64,000 nt of DNA from an uncultured Candidatus Saccharibacteria bacterium (GTDB lineage: Bacteria; Patescibacteriota; Minisyncoccia; Phycocordibacterales; UBA9973). The notes beneath the pieces are model-generated. The model did no database searches and had not been told where the DNA came from. It saw only the letters and a program-made list of their open reading frames with translations. Numbering within the stretch: the stretch's first letter is position 1; each line of letters begins with the position of its first letter. Both the position numbers and the translations under genes were made by a program. The DNA lies in contig CAYVZI010000006.1 in NCBI GenBank assembly GCA_964456475.1, positions 7,074 through 71,073 on the forward strand, in the 5' to 3' direction. Of the stretch, positions 2,147-64,000 are shown piece after piece.

Positions 2147-5100
2147 TTATTTTTCTTCTTCTGTTTTCTTTCCTTGTTCGTCGCGCTTGTCTACGAATCC
2201 TGTTCCAGCTGGAATGAGGCGTCCGATGATCACGTTTTCCTTAAGTCCACGAAGTGTGTCTACTCCACCGCGAATCGCGTTGGTGATGAGCACGCGGTTT
2301 GTGTTTTGGAATGAAGCAGCTGAGAGCCATGACTTGGTCGTAAGTGCAGTTTCTGAGATACCAAGTACGAGTGATTCTGCTGTTGCTTCTGTGAGACCCT
2401 TGATCTTAAGTGATGCGTTCTCATCGAGAAGCTCAACTGCTTCCACGATTTCGCTTGGAGAAAATCCTGATTCACCAGCATCCTTGATCTTGCGACGTGA
2501 GAACATTTGGCGAATGATGATTTCGATGTGCTTGCGAGAAATTGATGCACCCTGGAGTTCGTACACTTTGTTGATTTCGTGAATGATGTATTCTTCTGCA
2601 CGCTCGCGACCTCCGTATTTGAAGATCTCGGCAATATCTGCAGAACCGTCTGTCATAAGATCACCCTTCTTCACATTGTCGCCCTTGGCAACGATTGCCT
2701 GGCGGTGTGGTGGTACATCGTATGTAGTTTCGTTTGCTTTGCCATCCACCTTTGTATCATGAAGGACGACGATTGAGCGTTCTGTTGCGTTGATGCGGAT
2801 ATCGATGACAGTTCCATCATCATGCGCAACAACTGCAGGATTCTTTGGAAGTCGGCGTTCGAAGATTTCTTCGACACGTGGAAGACCAGCCGTAATGTCG
2901 ACACCTGCGAGACCTCCGGCGTGGAAGGTTCGAAGTGTGAGCTGTGTTCCTGGTTCACCGATCGCTTGTGCAGCAACGATTCCAACCGCTTCTCCAACCT
3001 TGACCAAATCATTGCGTCCCAAGTCGAGACCGTAACAACTCTGACAGATTCCATACACTGTCTTACAAGTGAGTGGTGAACGAACGAAAGCTTCTGTGAT
3101 TCCAGCTTGTTCGAGTTTGAGCGCTTCTTCTTTTGAGATGAGATATCCACGCTTGTGAATCACATTACCATCCTTGTCTTTGAGATCAGCTGCGAGGATG
3201 CGTCCGCGGATTGTCTTACTGATTGGAATTTCAATACCAAGAACATTGTCCTTGTGCATGAGTTTTCCTTCTTTTGTTCCACAATCTTCTTCAGTGATAA
3301 CCACATCTTGTGCAACGTCAACGAGACGGCGAGTGAGGTATCCAGCTTTCGCAGTGTTGAGCGCTGTGTCGGCAAGACCTTTACGTGATCCGTGAGTACA
3401 GATGAAGTATTCAATCGGAGAAAATCCTTCCTTGAACGATGGGATGATTGGGAAATCAATCGTGCGTCCAGATGGGTTCACGATCATACCTTTCATTCCG
3501 GCCATCTGCGTGAGGTTTGAAACCGATCCGCGGGCTTTTGAAGTAATCATGTCGCTCGCTGAACTTCCATCCACCATTGTTTCTGGAATGAGCTTTTCGA
3601 TATCCTTCTTTACACCTTCCCAGATTTCGAGAACCTTGCGGTAACGCTCTTCTTCAGAGAGGAGACCTTCACCGTATTGCTCTTCGACTTCTTTTTGTTT
3701 TGCGCGTCCAGCAGCAACCACTGCAGGCTTACCTTCTGGAACCTTGATGTTGTCGATTCCCCATGAGATACCTGACTTTGTTGAGTACGTAAATCCGAAA
3801 TTCTTGATCTTGTCGAGAAGATCCGGAGTCGCGTCAATGCCGTAGTGCATGATGAATTCATCCACAAGAGTATTCAATCGTGTCTGTCCGATGACTTCGT
3901 TCAAATATGGGAAGTCGTCTGGAAGAATTGAGTTGAAGAGGATTCGTCCTACAGTCGTCTCAAATGGCTTGCCTTCGAACTTTGCATATTTTTCTTTTTC
4001 AGTTCCAAGGATAGTCACCTTTGCGCGAAGTGCGAGCTCATCGAATGAGTACGCAGTGATCGCCTGGTTTGGGCTACCGAACATTTTGCCTTCACCCTTT
4101 TGGTTTGGCATAAGTTTTGTCATCCAGAAACATCCAAGTGCCATATCCATACGTGGAGATGTGATTGGGTCACCGTTCTGAGGTTTCAAGAGGTTCTTGT
4201 TTGAAGCCATGCGTTCCTCAGCTTCCTGTTGAGCAGGTTTTGAAAGTGGAACGTACACAGCCATCTGGTCTCCGTCGAAGTCGGCGTTGAACGCTGGACA
4301 GACGAGTGGGTGAACCTGGATCGCATTTCCTTCGATAAGGATCGGCTGGAAAGCCTGAATACCGAGACGGTGAAGCGTCGGTGCACGGTTGAGGAGCACG
4401 CGCTTGCCTTTGATTTCTTCTTCAAGGATTGCCCACACTTCTGGAATTCCATCTTCAATGAGACGGTTTGCTCCACGAATGTTGTATGCGAGTTCTTGTG
4501 CGATAAGTTTTGAAATCACGAATGGACGGAAGAGTTCGAGTGCCATGTGTTTTGGAAGTCCACACTGAGAAAGTTTGAGTGTAGGACCGACCACGATAAC
4601 AGAACGTCCAGAGTAGTCCACGCGCTTTCCAAGCAAGTTCTGACGGAAGAGACCTTGTTTTGATTTCAAGTTGTCTGAAAGAGATTTGAGTGCACGGCGC
4701 TGTGCCTGGTTCATCGCAACAGAGTCGTTCTGACGAGCGATTGAGTTGTCGATGAGAGCATCCACAGCTTCCTGCAAGATACGCTTTTCGTTACGCAAGA
4801 TCACGTCTGGCGCACCGATTTCCTTGAGCTTGCGGAGACGGTTGTTTCGGTTGATCACGCGACGGTAAAGGTCGTTGATGTCAGATGTCGCATGACGTCC
4901 TCCTTCAAGAGCCACCATTGGGCGAAGTGCCGGCGGGATGACTGGGATGACGGTGAGGAACATCCATTCTGGACGAATGCCTGAAGTGATCATCGAACGA
5001 ATAAGCGATAGGCGCTTTTCGAGCTTGTCCTTTTCAACAGCACTTGCCTTCTCAGATGCAGCTTCTGAAATTTCCTGAAGCTTTTTAAGATCAAGATTTT

Positions 5101-5829: not shown

Positions 5830-8800
5830 CTATTCCTTATTAGCTTCATTAGTTTCTCGACCTGTGTACCCTTTCTGCAAATCAACATCGAGTGCAAGTC
5901 CTCGGAGGTAATTCAACATAACTGAGAATGATGCTGGTGTGTTTGGAACTGGGATTTCTTCGCCCTTGATGATCGCGTCGAATGCCTGTGAACGTCCCAT
6001 GATATCGTCAGATTTTACAGTGAGCATTTCGCGAAGTGTGTGCGATGCACCGTAACCTTCGAGAGCCCAGACTTCCATTTCTCCAAAACGCTGACCTCCA
6101 CCTTGAGCTTTACCTCCGAGTGGCTGTTGCGTGATGAGACTGTACGGACCAATCGAACGCATGTGAATCTTGTCTTCCACCATGTGGTGCAGTTTGAGCA
6201 TGTACATGATACCGACAGCTACATCTTGTTCGAATTTGTCTCCAGTACGTCCATCGTAAAGTGGAATAGATCCTGATTCTGGGAATCCAGCTTTGACGAG
6301 TTCTTCCTTGATTTCGAAATCGCGAGCTCCAGCAAATGGAGGTACGACTGCTTGGTAGCCGAGCGTGTTTGCCGCAAGACCCAAGTGCATTTCAAGAATC
6401 TGTCCGAGGTTCATACGAGATGGAACTCCAAGCGGTGTAAGGATCACGTCGACAGGAGTACCGTCCTGCATGAATGGCATTTCTTCTTGTGGAAGAATTG
6501 TTGAGATAACACCCTTGTTTCCGTGACGACCTGCGAGCTTATCACCCACAGACACGTTACGAAGCTGAGCAACTTCGATGACTACTTTCTTGATGATTCC
6601 TGATTCGAGCTGATGACCTTCGGCACGTGAAAAGATCTTCACGCCGATGATGCGTCCACGCTTTCCGTGTTCAAGACGAAGTGATGTGTCTTTCACATCG
6701 CGAGCCTTTTCCGCAAAGATAGATCGGAGCAAGCGCTCTTCTGGAGTAAGTTCTGTTTCGCCCTTTGGTGTGATCTTTCCAACAAGAATATCGTTCTCGC
6801 GGATTTCTGCACCGATGCGAATGATACCTTCTTCGTCGAGGTCTTTGAGTTTGACTTCACCGACGTTTGGAATATCGCGTGTAGTGATTTCTGGTCCGAG
6901 CTTTGTATCACGCACGACACAGATATATTCTTCCACATGAATCGATGTGAAGACTGAGTCTTTTACAAGACGGTCAGAAAGAATAATCGCATCTTCGTAG
7001 TTGCGTCCTGCCCATGACATAAATGCTACAAGCACGTTTTGTCCAAGCGCGATTTGTCCGTTGTCAGAAGATGACATGTCGGCAAGGAGTTGACCTTTCT
7101 TCACTTCCTGTCCTACAGAGACCACTGGTCGCTGATGGAATGAAGTAAAGTTGTTTGTACGTGAGAAGTTGATGAGTGTGTATTCCTTTGTTCCAGATTT
7201 GCCCTTGACCACGACTCGCTTTCCATCCATGTGAGTGACTGTTCCTGCTTCTTCAGCAAGTACGAGACGTCCAGAAAATGGAGCAGCCTTTTCTTCGATA
7301 CCGGTAGAGACGAGCGGAGCGTTTGGCACGAGACATGGAGTCGCCTGCTTCTGCATGTTTGATCCCATGAGTGCACGGTTCGCGTCATTGTGTTCAAGGA
7401 AAGGCACCATCGCAGTCGCGATTGAGAATGCCTGATATGGAACAACGTCGATGAAGTCGATTTCGTCGCGAGAGATGATACCTGGTTCTGTCTTGATACG
7501 AGCTTCAACTTCTGCATCGCGAAGCACACCCTTTTCATCTACTGGGTTTGCCGCGTGAGCGATGTTGTACTTTTCTTCTTCAAGCGCGTTTAGGTACACG
7601 ATTTCATTCGTGACTTTTCCTTTGACCACTTTCACGTATGGAGTTTCGATGATTCCGAAATCATTGATGCGTGCATATATAGAGAGGTGCAAGATAAGAC
7701 CGATGTTCGGACCTTCAGGAGTGTGGATCGGACAGACGCGACCGTAGTGAGAAGTGTGCACGTCACGCACTTCAAGACCTGCGCGTTCGCGTGTGAGACC
7801 GCCGGGTCCAAGAGCCGAAAGAATTCGGATGTGCTCGATTTCAGCCAAGAGGTTTTCCTGGTTCATAAATTGCGAGAGCTGGTTCGTGGTGAAGAATTCC
7901 TTGATACGAGCCTGCATCGGACGCTGGTTGATGATCTGGATCGGAAGTGCCGCCGCTGTATCTATAGTAGACATACGGTCTTGCACGTTACGCTTGATCT
8001 GAGTCATACCCACGCGGATTTTCTGCGCGAGAAGTTCTCCCACATAACGGACGCGACGCTGTGCAAGGTGGTCGATGTCGTCAGCCTTTGCTCCAGGTGT
8101 GTGCGTGAGTTCTACGATGTATTTTACAACTTGAATGAGGTCATCTTTTGAAATAGTTCGACGCTCAAGTTCCTTTTCGCCCATGTTGAGGTCGAAGCGC
8201 TTGTTGAATCGGAAACGTCCGACCGGTGAAAGGTCGTAGCGGTCTTTTGAAAAGAGTGCGGTGATAAATTCGCGTGCATTGTCTGCAGTCGCGAGATCAC
8301 CGTCACGAAGACGCTTGTACATTTCGATTGTTGCATCGCCAGGAGTCTTGGCAGTGTCTTTTGCAAGACATGTTGCAATGACGTTTGCTACGCGTTCGTC
8401 GTCGGCAAATGCAGCCTTGATTTCATCGTCAGTAGCCATTCCCATAGCACGAAGAAGAGACGTAATTGGGAATTTACGTTTTTTGTCGATACGCACGTAG
8501 ATCACGCCGTCAGCTTCAGCATCGATTTCAATCCAAACTCCGCGAGCTGGAATGATTTTTGCACCGAAATACATCTTGCCTTTGAGTTCGTTTTCTGTGA
8601 AGAAGATACCGAACGATCGTGCAAGCTGCGCGACGATAACGCGTTCAACACCGTTGATGATGAACGTACCGTGATTGGTCATGACTGGAATATCAGAAAG
8701 GAAGATTTCCTGTTCCTTTGCGACGCCACCGGCAAGCTTGTTCACAAGCTTCACGTTCACCTTAAGCGGTGCTTCGTAAGAAAGCTTGTTTTGCTTTGCA

Positions 8801-22083: not shown

Positions 22084-22115
22084 TTTTCTAAACCCTATAC
22101 CCTAAACCCTAACCC
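22084..22115 (-). repeat. Telomere-like tract (minus sense GGGGTTAGGGTTTAGGGTATAGGGTTTAG), a G4 motif
   Basis: Plus strand reads CTAAACCCTATACCCTAAACCCTAACCCC. Lies between the adaptor and permease genes. Confidence 0.65.
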
Positions 22116-22125
22116 CTGTGGTCAT

Positions 22126-23967: not shown

Positions 23968-24006
23968 TTTTTCTAGACCCTAGAACCTAGACCCTAGACC
24001 CTGCAT
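23968..24006 (-). repeat. G-rich TAGGGTCTAGGG repeat tract downstream of typA
   Basis: Plus strand is CTAGACCCTAGAACCTAGACCCTAGACCCTG. Minus sense is GGGTCTAGGGTCTAGGTTCTAGGGTCTAG. Confidence 0.6.
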
Positions 24007-27256: not shown

Positions 27257-27372
27257 AGTTTGAATTTTATCATTCAGGATACAAAAGAGCGAGCGACTTT
27301 CGTCGCTCGCTCTTTTGTTGTATTTGTATAACTTTATGAACTTTACAAACTTTATGAACTTTCAACTTGCCG

Positions 27373-32140: not shown

Positions 32141-32292
32141 TCGAGTTCATCAAGTCTATAAAGTTTATAAAGTTAAAAGTCATACGAATGCAATTTCTTC
32201 CCCGCCTGTACACAGGAGGGGGTGGCCGGTACTCCGGACGGGGTGGTTCCTAAACTTTATAAACTTTACGAACTTTATAAACTTTTAACTTT
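32141..32292 (+). repeat. Family-3 A/T-rich AACTTTATAAACTT repeats in inverted orientation (32150-32180 vs 32251-32292) flanking a ~52-nt GC-rich structured core (32199-32250). The whole unit is MITE-like or a small structured RNA.
   Basis: AAGTTTATAAAGTT on the left and (AACTTTATAAACTT)x3 on the right. The core TTCCCCGCCTGTACACAGGAGGGGGTGGCCGGTACTCCGGACGGGGTGGTTCC has nested hairpins CCTGT/ACAGG and CCGG/CCGG. Confidence 0.55.
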
Positions 32293-38385: not shown

Positions 38386-38470
38386 TAAAAGTTTATAAAG
38401 TTCTTAAAGTTTATAAAGTGAAATTCAACAATGCGTGCCTGTATAGACTTTATGAACTTTCAACTTTATA
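38386..38470 (+). repeat. Family-3 repeat pair: (AGTTTATAAAGT)x2 then the inverted (ACTTTATRAACTT)x2 around a 25-bp core
   Basis: Read directly, between rnc and the nusB-Nudix gene. Confidence 0.55.
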
Positions 38471-38481
38471 AACTTGATGAA

Positions 38482-39387
38482 CTATTGTGCTCCCGTCAAT
38501 TTCGAAATAGCAGTCGCCATGTATCCAGTCACGTCATCATACATTTTGAGTCCTGCCACTTCTGCCACAGTAAACCAGCGCACATCATCAAGTCCTCCAG
38601 AATCATTTTTAAGAGTTACAGGTACGTATGATGACTCACCAAGAAAGAATATGACATGCTTGCGAATCTTGCCTTTTGTCGGATGATTGGCAACATATTC
38701 ACTCTCACCAATCTTGTCCACAACTTGTATATCAAGATTTGTTTCTTCTTTTATTTCACGAACAGCCGCCTGTTCTGGAGTCTCTCCTTCCTCAACTCCT
38801 CCTTTAGAAAGGGTCCAATAGCCGAAAATATCATGCACAAGCGCAAAGTAGAGTTCATCACCGTTTCGTGCGTAGATAAGCGCTCCAGCTTTTTGCTCAA
38901 TCGGAAGCGTAGTGATGTCCACATCTTCGTTTTTCTTTTGACGCTTTGATTTCTGATCCTTACCTGGCTCGCCAATTTCTTTGTAGACAGCACCAAGCAC
39001 ACCGTTGATGAATCGTGATGAACTATCACCGCCGAATGTCTTTGCGAGTTCGATTGCTTCATTGATAGCAACTTTCGGTGGAACTTCGTTATGGTCACCA
39101 AAAAGGAGCTCGCCGAGACCCATGCGCAAAATATTGCGGTCTACGGCATTGATCTTTTCTACTGGCCATTCCGGTGCAGCCTTGGCAATGATTTGGTCGA
39201 TAATCTCTCGTTTGTCGATGACAAAACCGAGAATTTTCTTCATAAAAGCAATATCCTCATTTCCTGGTGCAAATTCCCCTTCGTTGCGTTCAAGCATAGA
39301 AGCAGTACCCTCTGTTGGATATTGTTTAAAATCCCACTCAAAGAGTGTTTGAAGAACTATTGATCTAGAAAGATGACGATTTGCCAT
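38482..39387 (-). CDS. nusB: NusB-Nudix fusion protein: N-terminal antitermination factor NusB fold fused to a C-terminal Nudix hydrolase
   Basis: 301 aa. N-terminus LQTLFEWDF...VDRNILRMGLGELLF...AINEAIELAKTFGGDSSSRFINGVLGAV (NusB). C-terminal Nudix box GGVEEGETPEQAAVREIKEETNL. Confidence 0.75.
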   Translation of the reverse strand: MANRHLSRSIVLQTLFEWDFKQYPTEGTASMLERNEGEFAPGNEDIAFMKKILGFVIDKREIIDQIIAKAAPEWPVEKINAVDRNILRMGLGELLFGDHNEVPPKVAINEAIELAKTFGGDSSSRFINGVLGAVYKEIGEPGKDQKSKRQKKNEDVDITTLPIEQKAGALIYARNGDELYFALVHDIFGYWTLSKGGVEEGETPEQAAVREIKEETNLDIQVVDKIGESEYVANHPTKGKIRKHVIFFLGESSYVPVTLKNDSGGLDDVRWFTVAEVAGLKMYDDVTGYMATAISKLTGAQ

Positions 39388-57279: not shown

Positions 57280-58581
57280 CTATGCAAGCAGAGCGTCCCC
57301 TATTTTATAAGCTTCTCCTGCTCCCATTGTAACAAATACATCATCAGTACCGAGATTTTGATTTTTGAAAAATGCTTCAGCTTCTTCAAAGCTCGCAAAC
57401 GCCTTTGTTCCAGGCACATTCTTCACCACTGCGTCTGCAAGAATTTCTGACGACACAGTCGGATCTGGTACTTCACGAGCAAAATAAATCGGCAAGAAAT
57501 ATACTGCGTCAGCCTCATTGAATGCAGTGGTAAATTCATCAAACAACGCTTTCGTGCGTGAATACAAATGGGGCTGGAATAAAACGATTATCTTTTTTGT
57601 TCCTTTTGGATAGAGTTCACGGAGTCCTTCCAAACTTGCACGAACCTCGGTGGGATTGTGCGCATAGTCATCGTATACGACCACGCCATTTTTTGTGGTT
57701 CCCTTATTTTCAAGCCGGCGCCAAGTGCCAGAAAATTGTGCGATTGCTTTCTCCGCTTCGTCACTTTCAATGCCAATATATTCCGCTACAGCAAGCGCAC
57801 AAGCGGCATCTTTGCGATTGTGAACTCCAGGCACGAGAAGGTGTGGAACTTTGTCCATGTATTTCGTCCAGTCGATTATTGTAATATTCAAATCCTTAAT
57901 CACGCGTTCTACAGATGGATCGTTTGGATCGCATACGATCGCGCTTCCCGTCTGCATCGCCATCTCGGTAAACGCATGCTCGATATCGGCAAGATCTTTG
58001 TAGTAGTCGAGATGGTCTTCATCAATGTTTGTGATCACCAAAACCTTTGGCTCGATATTAAGAAACGAACGCTCATACTCGCACGCTTCCACAACGAAGT
58101 AGTCACTCTTGCCTACGATAAAATTCGATTTATATTCTTTAATGAGACTGCCAACAATCACCGATGGATCCTTCTTCGCCTCGATCAAAATCTTAGCAAT
58201 CATCGCCGTCGTTGTCGTCTTGCCATGCGTACCCGAAACTGCAATTGTATATTTTCCCGCAGTCACGATATGGAGCATCTCAGGATAGCTCTTTGCAGGA
58301 ATTCCAGATAAGAAAATCTTCTCCATAAGCGCAGGGTCATAATGCTTGATGGCAATCGTATATACAATCAAATCTGCATCAGTCGGGATCAAGTCAAAAT
58401 TCTGCCCAACAGTGATATTTGCACCAAGTTCACTAAGCTCATGAGTAATTTCCCCACTCGACATATCAGAGCCATATATTTCCTTCCCTTCCAAAAGCAT
58501 CATGCGTGCAATCGCCGAAATACCGATACCTCCAATACCGACAAAAAAAACTTTTTTGATTTTTTGTAAATCTAAATCCAT
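57280..58581 (-). CDS. murC: UDP-N-acetylmuramate--L-alanine ligase
   Basis: 433 aa. VFFVGIGGIGISAIA N-terminal Rossmann, GTHGKTTTT P-loop. Confidence 0.9.
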   Translation of the reverse strand: MDLDLQKIKKVFFVGIGGIGISAIARMMLLEGKEIYGSDMSSGEITHELSELGANITVGQNFDLIPTDADLIVYTIAIKHYDPALMEKIFLSGIPAKSYPEMLHIVTAGKYTIAVSGTHGKTTTTAMIAKILIEAKKDPSVIVGSLIKEYKSNFIVGKSDYFVVEACEYERSFLNIEPKVLVITNIDEDHLDYYKDLADIEHAFTEMAMQTGSAIVCDPNDPSVERVIKDLNITIIDWTKYMDKVPHLLVPGVHNRKDAACALAVAEYIGIESDEAEKAIAQFSGTWRRLENKGTTKNGVVVYDDYAHNPTEVRASLEGLRELYPKGTKKIIVLFQPHLYSRTKALFDEFTTAFNEADAVYFLPIYFAREVPDPTVSSEILADAVVKNVPGTKAFASFEEAEAFFKNQNLGTDDVFVTMGAGEAYKIGDALLA

Positions 58582-59144
58582 AATTTTTTAATTAATTCTT
58601 CTTGAACTTTTTTAACATCTTCTTCAGAAGTAATAGTAAAAAATTCATCAAACTGAGCAGAGTCAGGGGGCTGCATTCGATTTCGTTGTTTAATAATTAA
58701 ATCTTTAAAATCTTTAGATAGCCGAAGAACATTCGTTGACCTACTGGATTTTTCGATTCTTTGAATGAGTAATTCTTCTGGAAAATCAAAATACACTCCT
58801 ATAACTCGATAGTTGAACTTTTTACATAATTCAAGCACTAACTCACGGCCCTTAATCCACATATTTGAATTAGAAAGAATAACTGGCTTTCCTAATGATA
58901 GAGCAAACTCAACAAACAGCAGGAAGGCTTGAAATTTTAATGCTATTTTTTCAAAAGTACCAGTATGTTCCTTGTCGTCATTTTCCCGCAATTTAGGAAA
59001 CTGTTCTTTCATGAAAAGTGCGATTGGGTCTGCTTCAAGCACAATAAGGTTTTGAACTTTGCCTTCTATTTCTTTGGCAAAAGTAGTTTTTCCAGAATGG
59101 GTTTTGCCTATTAGCATTATCAAGATTTTCTGTGAATTTTCCAT
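58572..59144 (-). CDS. P-loop NTPase/kinase-like protein (AAA_33/zeta-toxin-like fold) inserted between murD and murC
   Basis: 190 aa. Walker A LIGKTHSGKTTFAKEI. Confidence 0.5.
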   Translation of the reverse strand: MENSQKILIMLIGKTHSGKTTFAKEIEGKVQNLIVLEADPIALFMKEQFPKLRENDDKEHTGTFEKIALKFQAFLLFVEFALSLGKPVILSNSNMWIKGRELVLELCKKFNYRVIGVYFDFPEELLIQRIEKSSRSTNVLRLSKDFKDLIIKQRNRMQPPDSAQFDEFFTITSEEDVKKVQEELIKKLWI

Positions 59145-59145
59145 G

Positions 59146-60447
59146 CTATTTTATCTTCTTCACTAATTTCAAAAACTGATCGTTTCGATCATACTCGTTC
59201 ACAAACAATCCAAAGGATGCAAATGCTGGAGAAAAGAGCACGACATCACCTTTACTTGCCGAAGCAATCGCAGTATCGACTGCATCCTTCAAAGATTCGG
59301 CTCGGTAAAAATCTAGATTTTCAATCTTGTCAGTACCAGTTCCAGGAAGAAGAATAACCGTATGAGCATATGCTACTGCAGTTTTTAGAAGTTCGGCGGT
59401 ATCGAGATTTTTGTCTGCCCCACCCATGATAAGTACAATCTGCTTTTTTGGAAAAGATTTCAATCCGGCAATTGTAGCTTCCGGCGTGGTTGAATTGTTG
59501 TCGTTATAGATCTGTACTCCACGAACAGTTTTTACAAGCTGGAGTCGTCCTTCGACAGCTTTGAAGCTTTCTACTCCTTCTTTGATCTTGGCGAGTGGAA
59601 TCTTGAGTGCCTGCACTGCTTGTATCGCAAGTGCGATATTTGCGCGATTATGTTCTCCAGGAAGGGAGAGCTTCCAAGATTTTGGTACTTCTCCTTGCGA
59701 AATGATTTTTCCTTTAAATGACTTTGGAATTTTCTTAAGAACACTCTCGCCAGCAACGAGCACGTCACCGTTTCTTTGATATTTGAAAATGAATGCCTTG
59801 TCTGCAAAATAATCCTTGAGATTATTTTTGTAGTAATTCATATGATCCGGCATGAAGTTGGTAAACACGGAAACGTTTGGCGAAATTTTTTGTTCACCGA
59901 ATCCCTGGAGTTGCCAACTCGAAAGCTCGAGTACGACATAGTCGCCGGATTTAATTTTTGGCAAAAGTGAAAGTGTTGCCACTCCACGAATATTTCCGCC
60001 GAGATGTACGCGCTTTCCTGCTTTCTTCAGAATATGATAAATGAGTGATGTGACTGTGGTCTTTCCGCGAGTTCCCGTGATTCCAATTACTTTTACATTT
60101 TTTGGAAGAAGAGAAACGAGCAGTTCATCATCCATGCGAATCGGAATGTTATTTTTTCGCGCTTCAGTAATATAGATCGAATCAAGTGGCACACCCTGTG
60201 CCTTGAGCACCATGTCGCAATTTTGAAAATCACTCAAGTCGTGACGACCGAGTACAAATCGAACATTTTTGTATTTTTTAAGCTGTGCCACTGATGAAGC
60301 AAGCGCCTTGGCATCCTTAAGGTCTGTAACGGTCACCTGAGCTCCACAACGCGCCAAAAAAGCCGTATCACCGAGCCCTTTACCGAGAAGGCCAAGTCCG
60401 AGCACGGTCACCTTTTTGCCCTTAAAATAAGCTTTGTAGTCCTGCAT
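59146..60447 (-). CDS. murD: UDP-N-acetylmuramoyl-L-alanine--D-glutamate ligase
   Basis: 433 aa. GITGTRGKTTVTSL P-loop. Mur ligase middle and C-terminal domains. Confidence 0.9.
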   Translation of the reverse strand: MQDYKAYFKGKKVTVLGLGLLGKGLGDTAFLARCGAQVTVTDLKDAKALASSVAQLKKYKNVRFVLGRHDLSDFQNCDMVLKAQGVPLDSIYITEARKNNIPIRMDDELLVSLLPKNVKVIGITGTRGKTTVTSLIYHILKKAGKRVHLGGNIRGVATLSLLPKIKSGDYVVLELSSWQLQGFGEQKISPNVSVFTNFMPDHMNYYKNNLKDYFADKAFIFKYQRNGDVLVAGESVLKKIPKSFKGKIISQGEVPKSWKLSLPGEHNRANIALAIQAVQALKIPLAKIKEGVESFKAVEGRLQLVKTVRGVQIYNDNNSTTPEATIAGLKSFPKKQIVLIMGGADKNLDTAELLKTAVAYAHTVILLPGTGTDKIENLDFYRAESLKDAVDTAIASASKGDVVLFSPAFASFGLFVNEYDRNDQFLKLVKKIK

Positions 60448-60465
60448 AAAAACATCTTACCATAT

Positions 60466-61509
60466 TCACATTTTTTCTATGGTTTTTTTTAATTTATACC
60501 CATTTCCATGACTAAGCATTCCTTTATATGAAGCTAGCGATTCAGGTTTCCGATTTCTCGCCAAATTTTTCAACATTCTCCGTTTCGTTGCAGTTCGTAA
60601 AACTCGATGTTTTGAAAAATGAATCCAACCAAGAAAATCCACGCCTGATGCGAGGGTTTTGATGAATACCTTGTCTGGATGGAGAGAAAGTTTAAGCTTT
60701 GTTTCCAAAAATTCTGCAATTTTCGGTAGCAATTCTTCAATATATTTTTTGTTTTCGCTCAGAATCACAAAATCATCTGCATAACGAATGTAGTATTTGC
60801 ATTTCAGTTCTCGCTTCATGAATTGATCAAATTCATTCATATATACATTTACCAGAAGCTGGCTCGTCAAATTTCCGAGTGGAAGTCCAACACATTGCTT
60901 GCCTTTGGTTGAAAAACTATCAACTACTTGTCCGAATAACCACAAAATATCCGCGTCTTCAATATGTTTTGCTAGAATTTCTTTCAAAGCAGGATGGTCG
61001 ATATTGGCAAAAAATTTCCGTATATCACATTTCAATACCCAGCATGTACGAGTATTATTTTTTGAAACAATCCTGCCAAAATCTCGAAACCGATTGAGAG
61101 CCTTGTGCTGTCCTTTACACTTCCTGCAAGAAAATGAACTAACATCAAATTTGTAATCAAAATAGGGATACAACACTCTATGAATTGCGTGATGCACAAG
61201 TCTGTCTCTCACACTCGCCTTATGAATGTCTCTCGGTTTTGGGTCATTAATGCGAAATGCGGTATATCCTTGATGCACGTACGTTTTATTTTTTAACTCA
61301 CAAGAAAGGGTCATTAAATTATCAGACAGTTGCATCGTAAATTCACCCACATCCTTGCGTTTCTTTTTTCCACACAAAAACTCTCGCCAAGAAACGAGCA
61401 GATTTTCAAAAGATGCTATACTGGCAAAATCATGGCGCAAACTTACTCTCTCTCTCTCTCTCTCTCGAGAATGCAAGTGTAGTCCTGCGAGCCAAGGAAG
61501 CATTCGCAT
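60466..61509 (-). CDS. Diversity-generating retroelement reverse transcriptase. Start uncertain: the ORF is open to 61617; Met at 61509/61503.
   Basis: RT domain 1 YVHQGYTAFRINDPKPRDIHKASVRDRLVHHAI. YADD catalytic box (YYIRYADDFVIL). Motif 4 LGNLTSQ (DGR-type [ILV]GxxxSQ rather than QGxxxSP). No maturase or endonuclease domain. Confidence 0.85.
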   Translation of the reverse strand: MRMLPWLAGLHLHSRERERERVSLRHDFASIASFENLLVSWREFLCGKKKRKDVGEFTMQLSDNLMTLSCELKNKTYVHQGYTAFRINDPKPRDIHKASVRDRLVHHAIHRVLYPYFDYKFDVSSFSCRKCKGQHKALNRFRDFGRIVSKNNTRTCWVLKCDIRKFFANIDHPALKEILAKHIEDADILWLFGQVVDSFSTKGKQCVGLPLGNLTSQLLVNVYMNEFDQFMKRELKCKYYIRYADDFVILSENKKYIEELLPKIAEFLETKLKLSLHPDKVFIKTLASGVDFLGWIHFSKHRVLRTATKRRMLKNLARNRKPESLASYKGMLSHGNGYKLKKTIEKM

Positions 61510-61841
61510 TGTGGACAAACAATGTCGTTCCTCATATGCCTCGTACTTCAAGATACACGACCGGAGCGAGAATCGAAACGCATTTTTTAGATTTGCTCGA
61601 AGCCATATATCAAGCATATTACGCTCCGCTCGAAAGTAAAAGTCCGTTCATTGTGACCGCGATCAACAAAAATGACCTTGTAAAATATTTTCTGCAAATC
61701 GCGTGGGAAAATAAGCTCATTAAAGATAAGCCATATATTGAAATTTCAGAAAAAATCCAAGAAGTAGGTAGAATCCTCGGCGGTTGGAAAAATAAGGTAA
61801 ATGAAAAAATCACTCACTCAAAACAAAGCATGACCCGCTAA
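61413..61841 (+). CDS. avd: DGR accessory variability determinant (Avd), four-helix-bundle protein, divergent from the RT
   Basis: C-terminus EISEKIQEVGRILGGWKNKVNEK parallels Bordetella bAvd (…IAEVGRILGSWIARVNRK). N-terminal helices also similar. Followed by terminator CAAAGCATGACCCGC-TAA-GCGGGTCATGCTTTG (61822-61858). Confidence 0.7.
   Translation: MLYWQNHGANLLSLSLSLENASVVLRAKEAFALWTNNVVPHMPRTSRYTTGARIETHFLDLLEAIYQAYYAPLESKSPFIVTAINKNDLVKYFLQIAWENKLIKDKPYIEISEKIQEVGRILGGWKNKVNEKITHSKQSMTR
61444..61466. repeat. (CT)10-11 dinucleotide microsatellite at the divergent avd/RT 5' overlap
   Basis: ACTCTCTCTCTCTCTCTCTCTCG. Encodes LSLSLSL in the avd frame and RERERER in the RT frame. Confidence 0.9.
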
Positions 61842-61873
61842 CGCGGGTCATGCTTTGAACATATCTTCAGTTT

Positions 61874-61978
61874 CGAAAGAGAGGAACAGATTGCCCTTAT
61901 TCCACGTATTGTCGTCGAGCGAGTTCGCATTGAAGTTCCACTCGTCGTCGTTCCAGTTCAGGTTCACGGCGACCACTC
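61874..61978 (-). other. DGR template repeat (TR)
   Basis: 105 bp. Differs from the variable repeat at 19 positions, all at TR adenines in the sense strand. Rich in AAC codons when read as protein (NLNWNDDEWNFNANSLDDNTWNKGN). Confidence 0.85.
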
Positions 61979-62269
61979 TTGTGCAATACCCCATCTGTAC
62001 CACTGGATGATGAACTGCATCATTCCTGCATATGTATACCGTATATAAAATACGCGAGAGTATCACACCTACTGAATAATATATGTATGAGAATTTGTAT
62101 GTTGCGCTCATGCAAGAATATTCCTACACAATTCTAAACTATACAAATCCTTGATACTCGTTTCTAAGATTTGATTCCGGGAAATCTTGTAGTATCGTGC
62201 TTGAGTATATATAAAAAGAACCTAAGATTCAAAGAATCAAAGGTTCTATAATTTAGCCCAATAACAAAG

Positions 62270-62941
62270 CTACTTTTTAGTAGCGAAAGAGAGGAACAGA
62301 TCGCCCTTACACCACGTAAGGCCGCCGAGCGAGAACGCATAGAAGTACCACTCGCCGCCGCCCCAGCCCAGGCCCACGGCGACCACTCGGCCATCTGGAA
62401 GTTCTACGTGCATGACATACCATTCTTTTTTATTCAGTTTGTACCCACCCAAAAATTGTTCGGCGAGTTCTGGTTGAAAAATCAGAAGATACTTTAGACA
62501 ACAATATGTTTCAAAATCCATATTGCCTGGATTATCTGTAGCAGTCTGAATTTCAGAATCCTTCATGCTTTTTGGCAAACGATATTCGTTCGGCCTGCCA
62601 AGTTCACGAATAGCGATAAATTTTTTCAGATTTGGTATCACGCACAATTCTCTGTAATTATCACCGAAATAAAGTCTTTTGTCCCCAGTTTCGGCTCTAT
62701 GTTTAAATACATCTCCAAACACAAATCCATTTACCAATTGATAGGTGAGCTTACACCCGTTGTTAATCCATTTGATAAACTCAGACAAAAAATTTTCTTT
62801 GTCCGGCATATCAATAGCATCCTGAATTTTTTGACCGTCAATTTCCGAAATTTTCTTGCTCTTTTCGGTGAGCATAGTTACAAAAAGGTTACTAATCATC
62901 ATTAGCAACTGTCCGATTTGACCTAATGTTGTTGGCTTCAC
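62270..62941 (-). CDS. DGR target (variable) protein with C-terminal variable repeat
   Basis: 223 aa. VR 62284-62388 encodes RVVAVGLGWGGGEWYFYAFSLGGLTWCKGDLFLSF. This is the Gly/Tyr/Trp-rich pattern commonly reported for DGR target C-type-lectin-fold VRs. Confidence 0.8.
   Translation of the reverse strand: MKPTTLGQIGQLLMMISNLFVTMLTEKSKKISEIDGQKIQDAIDMPDKENFLSEFIKWINNGCKLTYQLVNGFVFGDVFKHRAETGDKRLYFGDNYRELCVIPNLKKFIAIRELGRPNEYRLPKSMKDSEIQTATDNPGNMDFETYCCLKYLLIFQPELAEQFLGGYKLNKKEWYVMHVELPDGRVVAVGLGWGGGEWYFYAFSLGGLTWCKGDLFLSFATKK
62284..62388 (-). other. DGR variable repeat (VR) at the 3' end of the target gene
   Basis: Matches the template repeat 86/105. Every mismatch is at a TR adenine. A hairpin CTACTAAAAAGTAG (plus 62270-62283) lies directly 3' of it. 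Confidence 0.85.
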
Positions 62942-62995
62942 GTTTTTGCCTCGCTATCGTCGCTCTGTTTAAGCTATTTTACGGGGACTTGTTTT

Positions 62996-63061
62996 ATTGG
63001 TTAGAAAAATCAAAAAATTCGATTCCTGACTCAAAACCTTTGATTTTTCTAACCATTTTTT
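62996..63061. repeat. Perfect 16-bp inverted repeat GGTTAGAAAAATCAAA...TTTGATTTTTCTAACC with a ~26-nt loop
   Basis: Read directly. Lies between the murI 3' end and the DGR target-gene start. Confidence 0.7.
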
Positions 63062-63148
63062 TTAAAGAAATTTATATACATATTATAGCATAGAATAGGT
63101 ATAAAAGTCAAGGTCGAAAAAGACCCCTCACACAAGGGTCTTTTTCGA

Positions 63149-63958
63149 CTATTTTTCAAGGGTCACTTTTTGGATTTTAATCTCCTTTCCAAACCATTTA
63201 TTAGCGAGTTTTTGGAGGACTGGTGTGATATCTGTCACATAAAAAGTTCGTGTTCCCTTCTTTGAAAGTTGTGATGCGATTTCGGGATGACGAATGAGAT
63301 ATTCCTTGGTCTTTTTAGGCACCACTGTATCTTGAGAAAGAATTACTACATCTTTTGGAAGCAATTTTTTGAATTCATTTTTTACAATTCCATAATGAGT
63401 GCAGCCGAGGAGTAATGCATCAATTTTTTTAGCATTGAAATGCTTGAGATAGTCGGAAAGCACTGGGCGCATGTGTGCGATATCACCTGACTCGATAAAA
63501 GGAACGAGGAGTGGAGTGGCGAGCGGAAAAATCTTTGATTTTTCCGCTCGCTTTTTGAATTCTCGTTCATACGCACCCGACGACACAGTAGCGCTCGTTG
63601 CAACTAATCCAACTCGAGCAAATTCAGCACTTGCTTCAGCCATCGGTACAATCATGCCAAGCACATTCCGACCAGGATATTTTTTGGGAATATATTTTTG
63701 TTGAAGCTCGCGCAATGCTTCAGCACTTGCCGTATTACACGCCACAATGACGAGCGCGCAATTTTGTGCAAACAAAAAGTCTACTCCCTCTTTGAGGAAC
63801 TCATAGATAGTCTCATGACTCCGTGATCCGTACGGTAGACGCTTCGTATCACCAAGATAGACATAGTCATACTCCGGCAGCGCTTTCGAAATAGCCGACA
63901 TAGTAAAAAGCCCGCCAAGCCCTGAATCAAACACCCCGATTTTTCCTTGTATTTTCAT
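63149..63958 (-). CDS. murI: Glutamate racemase
   Basis: 269 aa. IGVFDSGLGGL and VACNTAS catalytic Cys motifs. Confidence 0.9.
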   Translation of the reverse strand: MKIQGKIGVFDSGLGGLFTMSAISKALPEYDYVYLGDTKRLPYGSRSHETIYEFLKEGVDFLFAQNCALVIVACNTASAEALRELQQKYIPKKYPGRNVLGMIVPMAEASAEFARVGLVATSATVSSGAYEREFKKRAEKSKIFPLATPLLVPFIESGDIAHMRPVLSDYLKHFNAKKIDALLLGCTHYGIVKNEFKKLLPKDVVILSQDTVVPKKTKEYLIRHPEIASQLSKKGTRTFYVTDITPVLQKLANKWFGKEIKIQKVTLEK

Positions 63959-64000
63959 TCCTAATTCTTAATTCGTAATTCCTAATTTACATCTAGTCCC

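Follow-up and report, generated by a model that had tools for sequence, protein, structure and literature searches.

A diversity-generating retroelement in a Patescibacteria genome with a candidate phase-variable dinucleotide repeat at the overlapping 5′ ends of avd and the reverse transcriptase gene

Introduction

The diversity-generating retroelement (DGR) of Bordetella phage BPP-1 is organised as mtd-avd-TR-brt and combines the reverse transcriptase (RT) Brt with the accessory variability determinant Avd. In the Bordetella DGR, an inverted repeat follows the initiation-of-mutagenic-homing sequence (IMH), located at the 3′ end of the variable repeat (VR) (PMC5758913, PMC3240598). The Bordetella RT needs a duplex formed by the template repeat (TR) and Sp, the spacer RNA between TR and brt (bioRxiv 10.1101/2023.10.23.563531). 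Among the DGRs of the candidate phyla radiation (CPR), Wu et al. 2018 described Architecture B3, with the order TR-(avd)-RT (PMC5758913), and reported cassettes beside or inside ribosomal-protein operons (PMC5758913). Roux et al. 2021 described DGR clade 2 as restricted to Patescibacteria (PMC8144416). Here we describe a DGR in the genome of an uncultured Candidatus Saccharibacteria bacterium, together with a (GA)n/(TC)n repeat tract at the start of its avd and RT genes. The element lies in a stretch of 64,000 nt (assembly GCA_964456475.1, contig CAYVZI010000006.1, positions 7,074 to 71,073), hereafter the window. All coordinates refer to the window unless a related contig is named, and the labels L001 to L030 denote contigs or loci with related cassettes.

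Similar to the BPP-1 element, the DGR of the window combines a Brt-homologous RT with an Avd partner, adenine-specific differences between TR and VR, a VR at the 3′ end of the target gene and a TR rich in AAY codons. Also shared are a 3′ segment free of adenine and an inverted repeat, which is found after VR but not after TR. In contrast to BPP-1, avd of the window is reversed and lies between TR and RT, and nothing obvious corresponds to the 140-nt Sp primer RNA. The element resides in a cellular host and not in a phage, the target is a 223-aa protein without known family instead of a tail-fibre protein, and a dinucleotide repeat is present in the start region of avd and RT. With the CPR set and Architecture B3, the locus shares gene order, avd orientation, host group and chromosomal location. 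A small target without known domains and sites in ribosomal-protein operons are further features in common with the CPR set. Host and similarity place the DGR of the window putatively in clade 2. The DGR itself differs in nothing essential from published CPR DGRs, and both clade and layout were already known.

Results and discussion

The window harbours a complete diversity-generating retroelement

An initial annotation, made from the sequence alone, had proposed a complete DGR at this locus. RT, Avd, the TR/VR pair and a VR-bearing target open reading frame (ORF) were all found and passed the tests applied to them, and the region 60466-63111 is very probably a functional DGR, complete in itself, that belongs to the Patescibacteria (CPR) clade.

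TR (61874-61978, minus strand) is non-coding, and VR is located at 62284-62388 on the same strand, at an offset of 410. Pairwise comparison of the two repeats, 105 nt each, gave 86/105 identical positions and 19 mismatches. Every mismatch corresponds to a plus-strand T in the TR copy, that is, to an A on the minus (sense) strand; the 19 substitutions of the initial annotation, all at plus-strand T, were thus reproduced exactly, with 0 non-adenine mismatches. The changes from TR to VR comprise 12 A>G, 6 A>T and 1 A>C, so that 19 of the 27 TR adenines are altered in VR (P = 6e-15 that 19 random mismatches all strike those 27). A search of the window with the adenine-masked TR pattern returned two copies only, TR and VR, with 0 expected by chance.

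When the repeats are lengthened to 110 nt (61869-61978 and 62279-62388), the mismatches number 21 and are still confined to adenines, and the first non-adenine mismatch stands just beyond. The two extra mismatches are the fixed difference between GAAACT in TR (61869-61874) and GCTACT in VR (62279-62284), which recurs in related elements. Related TRs end in ...TTCGAAAC(T) and their VRs in ...TTCGCTAC(T), with TCTACT in L003. Because the pair recurs in fixed form, the two-base difference reads as a repeat boundary and not as mutagenesis; it probably marks the homing boundary.

Read in the frame of the target, TR gives VVAVNLNWNDDEWNFNANSLDDNTWNKGNLFLSF, with 9 Asn and 4 Asp codons, in agreement with the Asn/Asp-rich template noticed before. 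AAC, AAT and GAC codons are frequent. The 26 in-frame adenines occupy codon position 1 (11) and position 2 (15) and never position 3, which is the classic DGR design. The final 17 nt of TR are free of adenine, and the adenine-free segment of 16-17 nt at the repeat 3′ end is the same in TR and VR.

The target (variable-protein) gene is the ORF 62270-62941 on the minus strand, with 223 aa and a GTG start; the NCBI annotation gives a 209-aa form that starts from Met15. VR lies inside this ORF and forms codons 186-219, the last 34 codons before an A-T-K-K-stop tail, so that the second copy is the C-terminus of the 223-aa ORF, as first described. Thirteen of the 34 VR codons encode another amino acid than TR.

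The RT gene is located at 60466-61440 on the minus strand and encodes 324 aa from a TTG at 61440. This predicted start is based on homologues that begin with M-L-R-H-I-Y...ENL and on frame analysis. The ORF is open upstream to 61617 (383 aa), and this longer form (60466-61617) was judged unlikely to be the true extent of the gene. The RT matched Pfam RVT_1 (1.4e-22), and the ORF contains both YADD and LGNLTSQ. The latter fits the [LIV]GxxxSQ form of motif 4 and not the QGxxxSP type of group II and retron RTs. The best solved relative of the RT is 8ub7 (E 3.7e-37), which is Brt of Bordetella phage BPP-1 (100% identity), and the best group II intron RT reached 3.4e-21. Among the NCBIfam models, TIGR04416 (group II) reached 149 bits with a cutoff of 300, and the model for retrons reached 56 bits with a cutoff of 235. 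A DGR-type RT with these two motifs, as initially proposed, is consistent with Brt as the nearest solved structure and with group II and retron models below their cutoffs. At least 8,000 RT homologues were found at E < 1e-30, and the best 120, which are 64-76% identical, belong to Parcubacteria, Uhrbacteria, Berkelbacteria, Paceibacterota and similar groups.

The gene avd (61413-61841, plus strand) encodes 142 aa and is located on the strand opposite to TR and RT. Its product scored 50.2 bits with the Pfam family PF22296 bAvd (gathering score 40), in line with the earlier description of this divergent ORF as Avd-like. The NCBIfam model NF033474 DivGenRetAVD gave 56.8 bits, under the cutoff of 80, and a phmmer search of Avd against PDB returned no match.

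The mechanism proposed for the element follows the Bordetella paradigm. On the minus strand, the order would be promoter, target gene with VR at its 3′ end, VR-specific hairpin and terminator, TR, a further hairpin, avd on the opposite strand, and RT. TR would be transcribed, and a complex of RT and Avd would copy the TR RNA to cDNA, with misincorporation opposite template adenines. The mutagenised cDNA would then replace VR. Up to 13 codons (AAC, AAT, GAC, AAG) could be rewritten in this way in the last three beta-strands of the 223-aa protein, and the adenine-free scaffold codons would remain fixed. The homing boundary would be set by the adenine-free 3′ segment CTGTTCCTCTCTTTCG and the VR-only hairpin.

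Related cassettes and evidence of activity

Seven related cassettes have 19, 17, 20, 16, 22, 15 and 18 mismatches between TR and VR, every one of them at a TR adenine. L013 and L014, which represent one lineage in two samples, differ at 16 of 870 nt. Fifteen of these differences lie in VR at TR-adenine positions, and the sixteenth is non-coding and located downstream of the target gene. This VR-confined variation is the strongest evidence of activity and comes from the lineage of a relative.

The TR of the window and that of its nearest relative, L002, show 8 differences, 6 of which are non-adenine in both. All six (6/6) are mirrored in the VR of the same element, in a gene that is otherwise 16.8% diverged. 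On the basis of these mirrored changes, TR-to-VR transfer appears to have continued after the split of the window and L002 lineages. The earlier proposal of an active or recently active element is therefore supported indirectly, by the lack of non-adenine mismatches, intact ORFs, concerted change of TR and VR, and the VR-only variation of a relative.

Other relatives show the look of dead elements. In L019/L020, positions 4881-5040 carry a truncated TR remnant with non-adenine mismatches, avd and RT are missing, and pilin-like genes follow. L011, L012 and L017 possess the target gene without a TR within 10 kb. The cassette of the window is unlike them.

A dinucleotide repeat at the start of avd and RT

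A simple-sequence repeat is located at 61446-61466, in the 5′ coding region of avd and 5 nt upstream of the TTG of RT. Its plus-strand sequence is (TC)10C and its minus-strand sequence (GA)10G, and it corresponds to residues 12-18 (LSLSLSL) of the Avd ORF. No other period-2 repeat occurs in the window, where chance alone would give 0.

Every intact relative carries the tract at the same site, with lengths of 11, 13, 13, 21, 21, 21 and 25 nt, and G10 in L016. It is found at the overlapping 5′ ends of avd and RT in L002 (11476-11488), L003 (11494-11514), L013 (9353-9377), L018 (7427-7439), L028 (2359-2369) and L030 (1946-1966), and also in L022-L027. In L016, G10 takes the place of (GA)n at ~7440-7455, and the upstream Avd ATG is out of frame in the consensus; C9 or C12 on the avd strand would put this ATG back in frame.

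In the window, the tract must, judging from the position of start codons, be translated as (LS)n in avd, because no start codon lies between it and the conserved Avd peptide. This peptide, [D/E]-N-A-[S/T]-[V/I]-[V/I]-x-R-x-K-E-A-F, follows the tract and is conserved, with changes at third codon positions between lineages. Lineages without the tract have an ATG directly before N-A-S of Avd. On the side of RT, 97 homologues (64-76% identical) have a called N-terminus that extends sufficiently upstream, and 53 of these show a translated (RE)n run. Members of one RT cluster (>= 90% identity) can carry (RE)2, (RE)3 or (RE)4, for instance MRERES, MRERERES and MRERERERES. In such clusters, different upstream frames are joined to one RT body, or the upstream frame is lost.

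Length variation between near-identical sequences was found in L022-L027, six contigs from six samples with ~6 single-nucleotide polymorphisms over ~670 nt. The samples of this lineage are 3300014206, 3300035208, ERR13731144, ERR7570004, ERZ926035 and SRR34068988. The tract measures 21, 23 or 25 nt in this group, and each length occurs twice. With 25 nt, both RT and Avd have an ATG in frame. With 23 nt, RT has only a TTG and Avd only a GTG, and with 21 nt neither gene has an in-frame start. As in L022, one length class strips both genes of starts in L018 (in silico). In the window, the start of RT at TTG 61440 is independent of tract length. Avd has an ATG in frame in the natural 21-nt class and in one other of the three length classes, and no ATG in the remaining class. 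The two classes with Avd ON use separate ATGs, and the product begins with MLYWQN... at the natural 21 nt and with MAQTY... in the other class. Three attributes of a tract-based contingency locus were found, namely a perfect repeat in the 5′ coding region, length polymorphism between near-identical contigs, and ON and OFF frame classes (in silico).

Gain or loss of one repeat unit would shift the Avd body between the first ATG, a second ATG in another frame, and none. In many sister lineages, the tract would also carry the frame of RT. It would thereby act as a stochastic, heritable and reversible gate on hypermutation. Since the tract is conserved, polymorphic and frame-shifting for avd and, in many lineages, for RT, we tentatively propose that this clade-wide (GA)n/(TC)n tract, occasionally a poly-G, is a stochastic multi-state switch that may set hypermutation to on, down or off, often through both genes.

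The closest analogue of the tract is the 5′ CT repeat of the Helicobacter pylori genes oipA and sabA, which encode outer-membrane proteins and undergo phase variation (PMC10564699, PMC2715451). In both cases (CT)n lies in the 5′ coding region and is read as Leu-Ser, changes of one unit shift the frame between ON and OFF, and alleles vary between close strains, here between near-identical contigs. The alleles described here are known only from contigs of different samples. Unlike in H. pylori, what would be gated is not a surface protein but a component of the mutagenesis machinery. The tract is shared by two genes that overlap head to head, avd and, in many lineages, RT, with (LS)n as its translation on the avd strand and (RE)n on the RT strand. 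In addition, the ON state comes in two classes, each with a start codon in its own frame. A conserved, length-polymorphic (GA)n tract in DGRs is probably new: full-text literature searches, whose coverage did not extend to the main CPR-DGR paper (Paul et al. 2017), revealed no paper that ties DGRs to simple-sequence repeats or phase variation.

Alternative explanations

Several observations weigh against a functional DGR gated by the tract. The only other assembly of the window population (L001, SRR12712864) is 100% identical over 7,570 bp, and it therefore gives no information on VR or tract heterogeneity in that population. A scan with the promoter consensus detected no promoter for RT or avd, and the fold of the target does not clearly match a C-type lectin. 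In the L003 lineage, the tract measures 21 nt in each of eight assemblies, and is thus not so unstable that its consensus length changes in all lineages. In the window, L002 and L003, the start of RT lies downstream of the tract, and only Avd would be gated there. Most gene calls for Avd begin at a Met further downstream, with 97-102 aa. These calls were judged unlikely to give the true limits of the gene.

Decayed relatives such as the L019/L020 remnant and L011, L012 and L017, with no TR in reach, indicate how the cassette could be a frozen relic, in which VR was once diversified by a DGR that no longer works in this genome. The window also gives no population-level variation, as L001 is identical and the exact target protein sequence was found in no other record. 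Such a relic is nevertheless quite improbable, as RT, avd and target are all intact, the 105-110 nt contain 0 non-adenine mismatches where the decayed L019 remnant has many, TR and VR have changed in concert since the L002 split, and the tract of the window is in the Avd-ON frame (in silico). Another reading assigns the RT to the group II intron or retron type and takes the repeat pair as an unrelated duplication. The group II model does top the NCBIfam matches of the RT, though far under its cutoff (149 vs 300 bits), and some RT homologues are labelled 'retron-type' in the source annotations. The probability of this reading is negligible. Brt is the nearest solved relative by 16 orders of magnitude over the group II RT, no intron RNA or other Rfam family was found in the region or the whole window, and the [LIV]GxxxSQ motif and the neighbouring Avd with its bAvd match, together with the adenine-only mismatches (P 6e-15), contradict it. 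We therefore rejected it and retain a functional DGR.

As regards the tract, a purine-rich ribosome-binding or 5′-leader element for RT would explain why a TTG start stands 5-7 nt past it in the window, L002 and L016 and an ATG after it in L003. G10 could then stand in for (GA)n, as expected if purine richness counts, and the tract would not be a switch; nor would it be one as a neutral microsatellite, and the single length shared by the eight L003-lineage assemblies would fit. We consider this explanation rather unlikely. In many lineages no start codon is present from the tract to the conserved RT N-terminus, so that the tract must be translated, and the conserved helix 1 of Avd starts right after it, again with no start codon between. 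Decay would be expected of a neutral microsatellite, but RTs with no more than 64-76% identity still have perfect tracts, and the natural alleles span all three frames, one of them predicted to lose both starts. Alternatively, (GA)n RNA might pair with the pyrimidine-rich, adenine-free 3′ end of TR in a long-range template-primer duplex for cis-primed cDNA synthesis, comparable to the duplex that the Bordetella RT needs. The predicted duplex of tract and TR has -23.4 kcal/mol in the window, equalled or beaten by 0.1% of locus windows, and similar values were obtained for L002, L030 and L018. In L013, L028, L022 and L016, pairing is at background (10-20% of windows equal it), yet the tract is kept. 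Moreover, the tract lies ~410 nt beyond a strong terminator-like hairpin, and adenine-free Leu, Phe and Ser codons already account for the pyrimidine-rich TR end. Pairing of this kind is an improbable reason for the tract, and a switch in the frame of avd, often also of RT, is the reading that we tentatively keep.

Target protein

The target family comprises 13 close homologues, and 207 representative clusters were obtained when 1.84 billion proteins were searched in full with a profile. The family alignment shows a conserved body of ~185 residues and a hypervariable C-terminus. No Pfam or NCBIfam family matched the target protein. Comparison of the sequence profile with PDB gave chance-level matches only, and Foldseek of the target model against PDB found no significant match.

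The C-terminal domain (residues 68-223) was modelled with high confidence (predicted local distance difference test, pLDDT, 89.7; predicted template modelling score, pTM, 0.85), and VR forms the last three beta-strands of the model. A C-type-lectin fold, as the initial annotation had suggested, is at most weakly indicated. The target, initially described as non-secreted-looking, has a borderline hydrophobic helix (Kyte-Doolittle 1.47) at its N-terminus, which half of the family lacks. A viral contig collection contained no relative of the target and thus gave no sign of phage carriage.

Non-coding elements of the cassette

A promoter-like site of the target gene is present at 63082-63111 on the minus strand (TTGACT-18-TATAAT, 11/12, extended TG), directly after the murI terminator hairpin. 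The consensus scan also marked two promoter-like sites upstream of TR, at 62232->62204 and 62166->62138 on the minus strand. The scan found 9 sites against 7.8 expected in shuffles, and its promoters are accordingly no better than those of shuffled sequence. Between the promoter-like site 63111->63082 and the target gene, in what is the predicted 5′ leader, an imperfect palindrome (62998-63055) has 28-nt arms with 82% complementarity. It belongs to the part that is homologous to L002 and may serve as an operator or leader structure.

At the 3′ edge of VR, the hairpin GCTACT-AAAA-AGTAGC (62269-62284, minus strand) is VR-specific. TR has GAAACT at the corresponding place, and the two-base difference leaves a hairpin on the VR side only. 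A palindrome of the GCTACT...AGTAGC type is kept in L002, L003, L013, L016 and L018. In its position, the VR-only hairpin matches the inverted repeat after the Bordetella IMH, and by analogy it may have the same function.

A stem-loop with the core GATTCTTTGAATC followed by a T-run (62217-62247, minus strand) is the predicted terminator of the target gene. The core is kept in six lineages with 57-86% target identity, and the stem-loop possibly doubles as a homing element. Seventeen nt past the 3′ end of TR, a perfect 15-bp hairpin with a 4-nt loop (61824-61857) spans the stop of avd and is terminator-like on the minus strand, with the tail TTTTGAGTGA. It is near-identical in L002, and different hairpins are located at the same place in L003, L013 and L016. 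At the gathering score, no Rfam family was detected in the cassette region or anywhere in the 64 kb. A match to RAGATH-11 (26.7 bits vs a threshold of 79.4) was dismissed as chance. No tRNA genes were found in the window.

Genomic context and mobility

The cassette is flanked by murI (63149-63958) and murD (59146-60447; TIGR01087, 327 bits), the latter abutting RT. Next to murD, an ORF of 190 aa (58572-59144, minus strand) encodes an AAA_33 or zeta-toxin-like P-loop kinase; it lies between murD and murC and overlaps the murC start by 10 nt. The gene murC (57280-58581) follows beyond it. The cassette is thus inserted within mur genes, as stated in the initial annotation. The neighbours are murI and murD, and murC, which had been placed next to the element, is not adjacent.

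Homology between the window and L002 runs from ~63067 to 60493 and then stops, and from these ends the cassette is apparently a module of ~2.6 kb. The same module was found in five genomic contexts, and the mur cluster as a special site was not borne out. These contexts are murI/murD in the window, recO/proS in L002, truB/rpsH in the ribosomal-protein operon in L003-L010, rpsG/fusA in the str operon in L028 and L029, and a position beside a large serine recombinase in L013. In L013, the large serine recombinase and an N6/N4 methyltransferase are adjacent to the cassette, which hints at a mode of movement. The relatives of the cassette are metagenome-assembled genomes of Candidatus Nomurabacteria and other Patescibacteria, in agreement with the initial attribution to CPR.

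Other short repeats were observed in the window. Arrays with a 9-bp period of TAAACTTTA-like units occur on either strand over ~11 kb (27330-27362, 32144-32174, 32251-32285, 38388-38419 and 38442-38483) and are candidate iterons or regulatory sites. A 7-bp period is seen in arrays of CTAAACC and CTAGACC (22088-22117 and 23973-24002, 4.3 copies each) and of ATTCCTA (63957-63987, 4.4 copies), the last one just upstream of murI.

Significance

The DGR of the window is one more well-supported CPR example, with a defined target family of ~200 clusters. Its module of ~2.6 kb relocates among core housekeeping operons, including the mur, ribosomal-protein and str operons and the recO-proS region. The control of DGR activity in nature is largely unknown, and the repeat tract suggests a specific hypothesis, which metagenomes already available could test. 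If the tract acts as proposed, it would represent a switchable mutator in organisms with minimal genomes, and engineered DGR systems could be gated on the same principle. Lineages would then be able to switch between phases in which the target protein is diversified and phases in which a successful variant is frozen.

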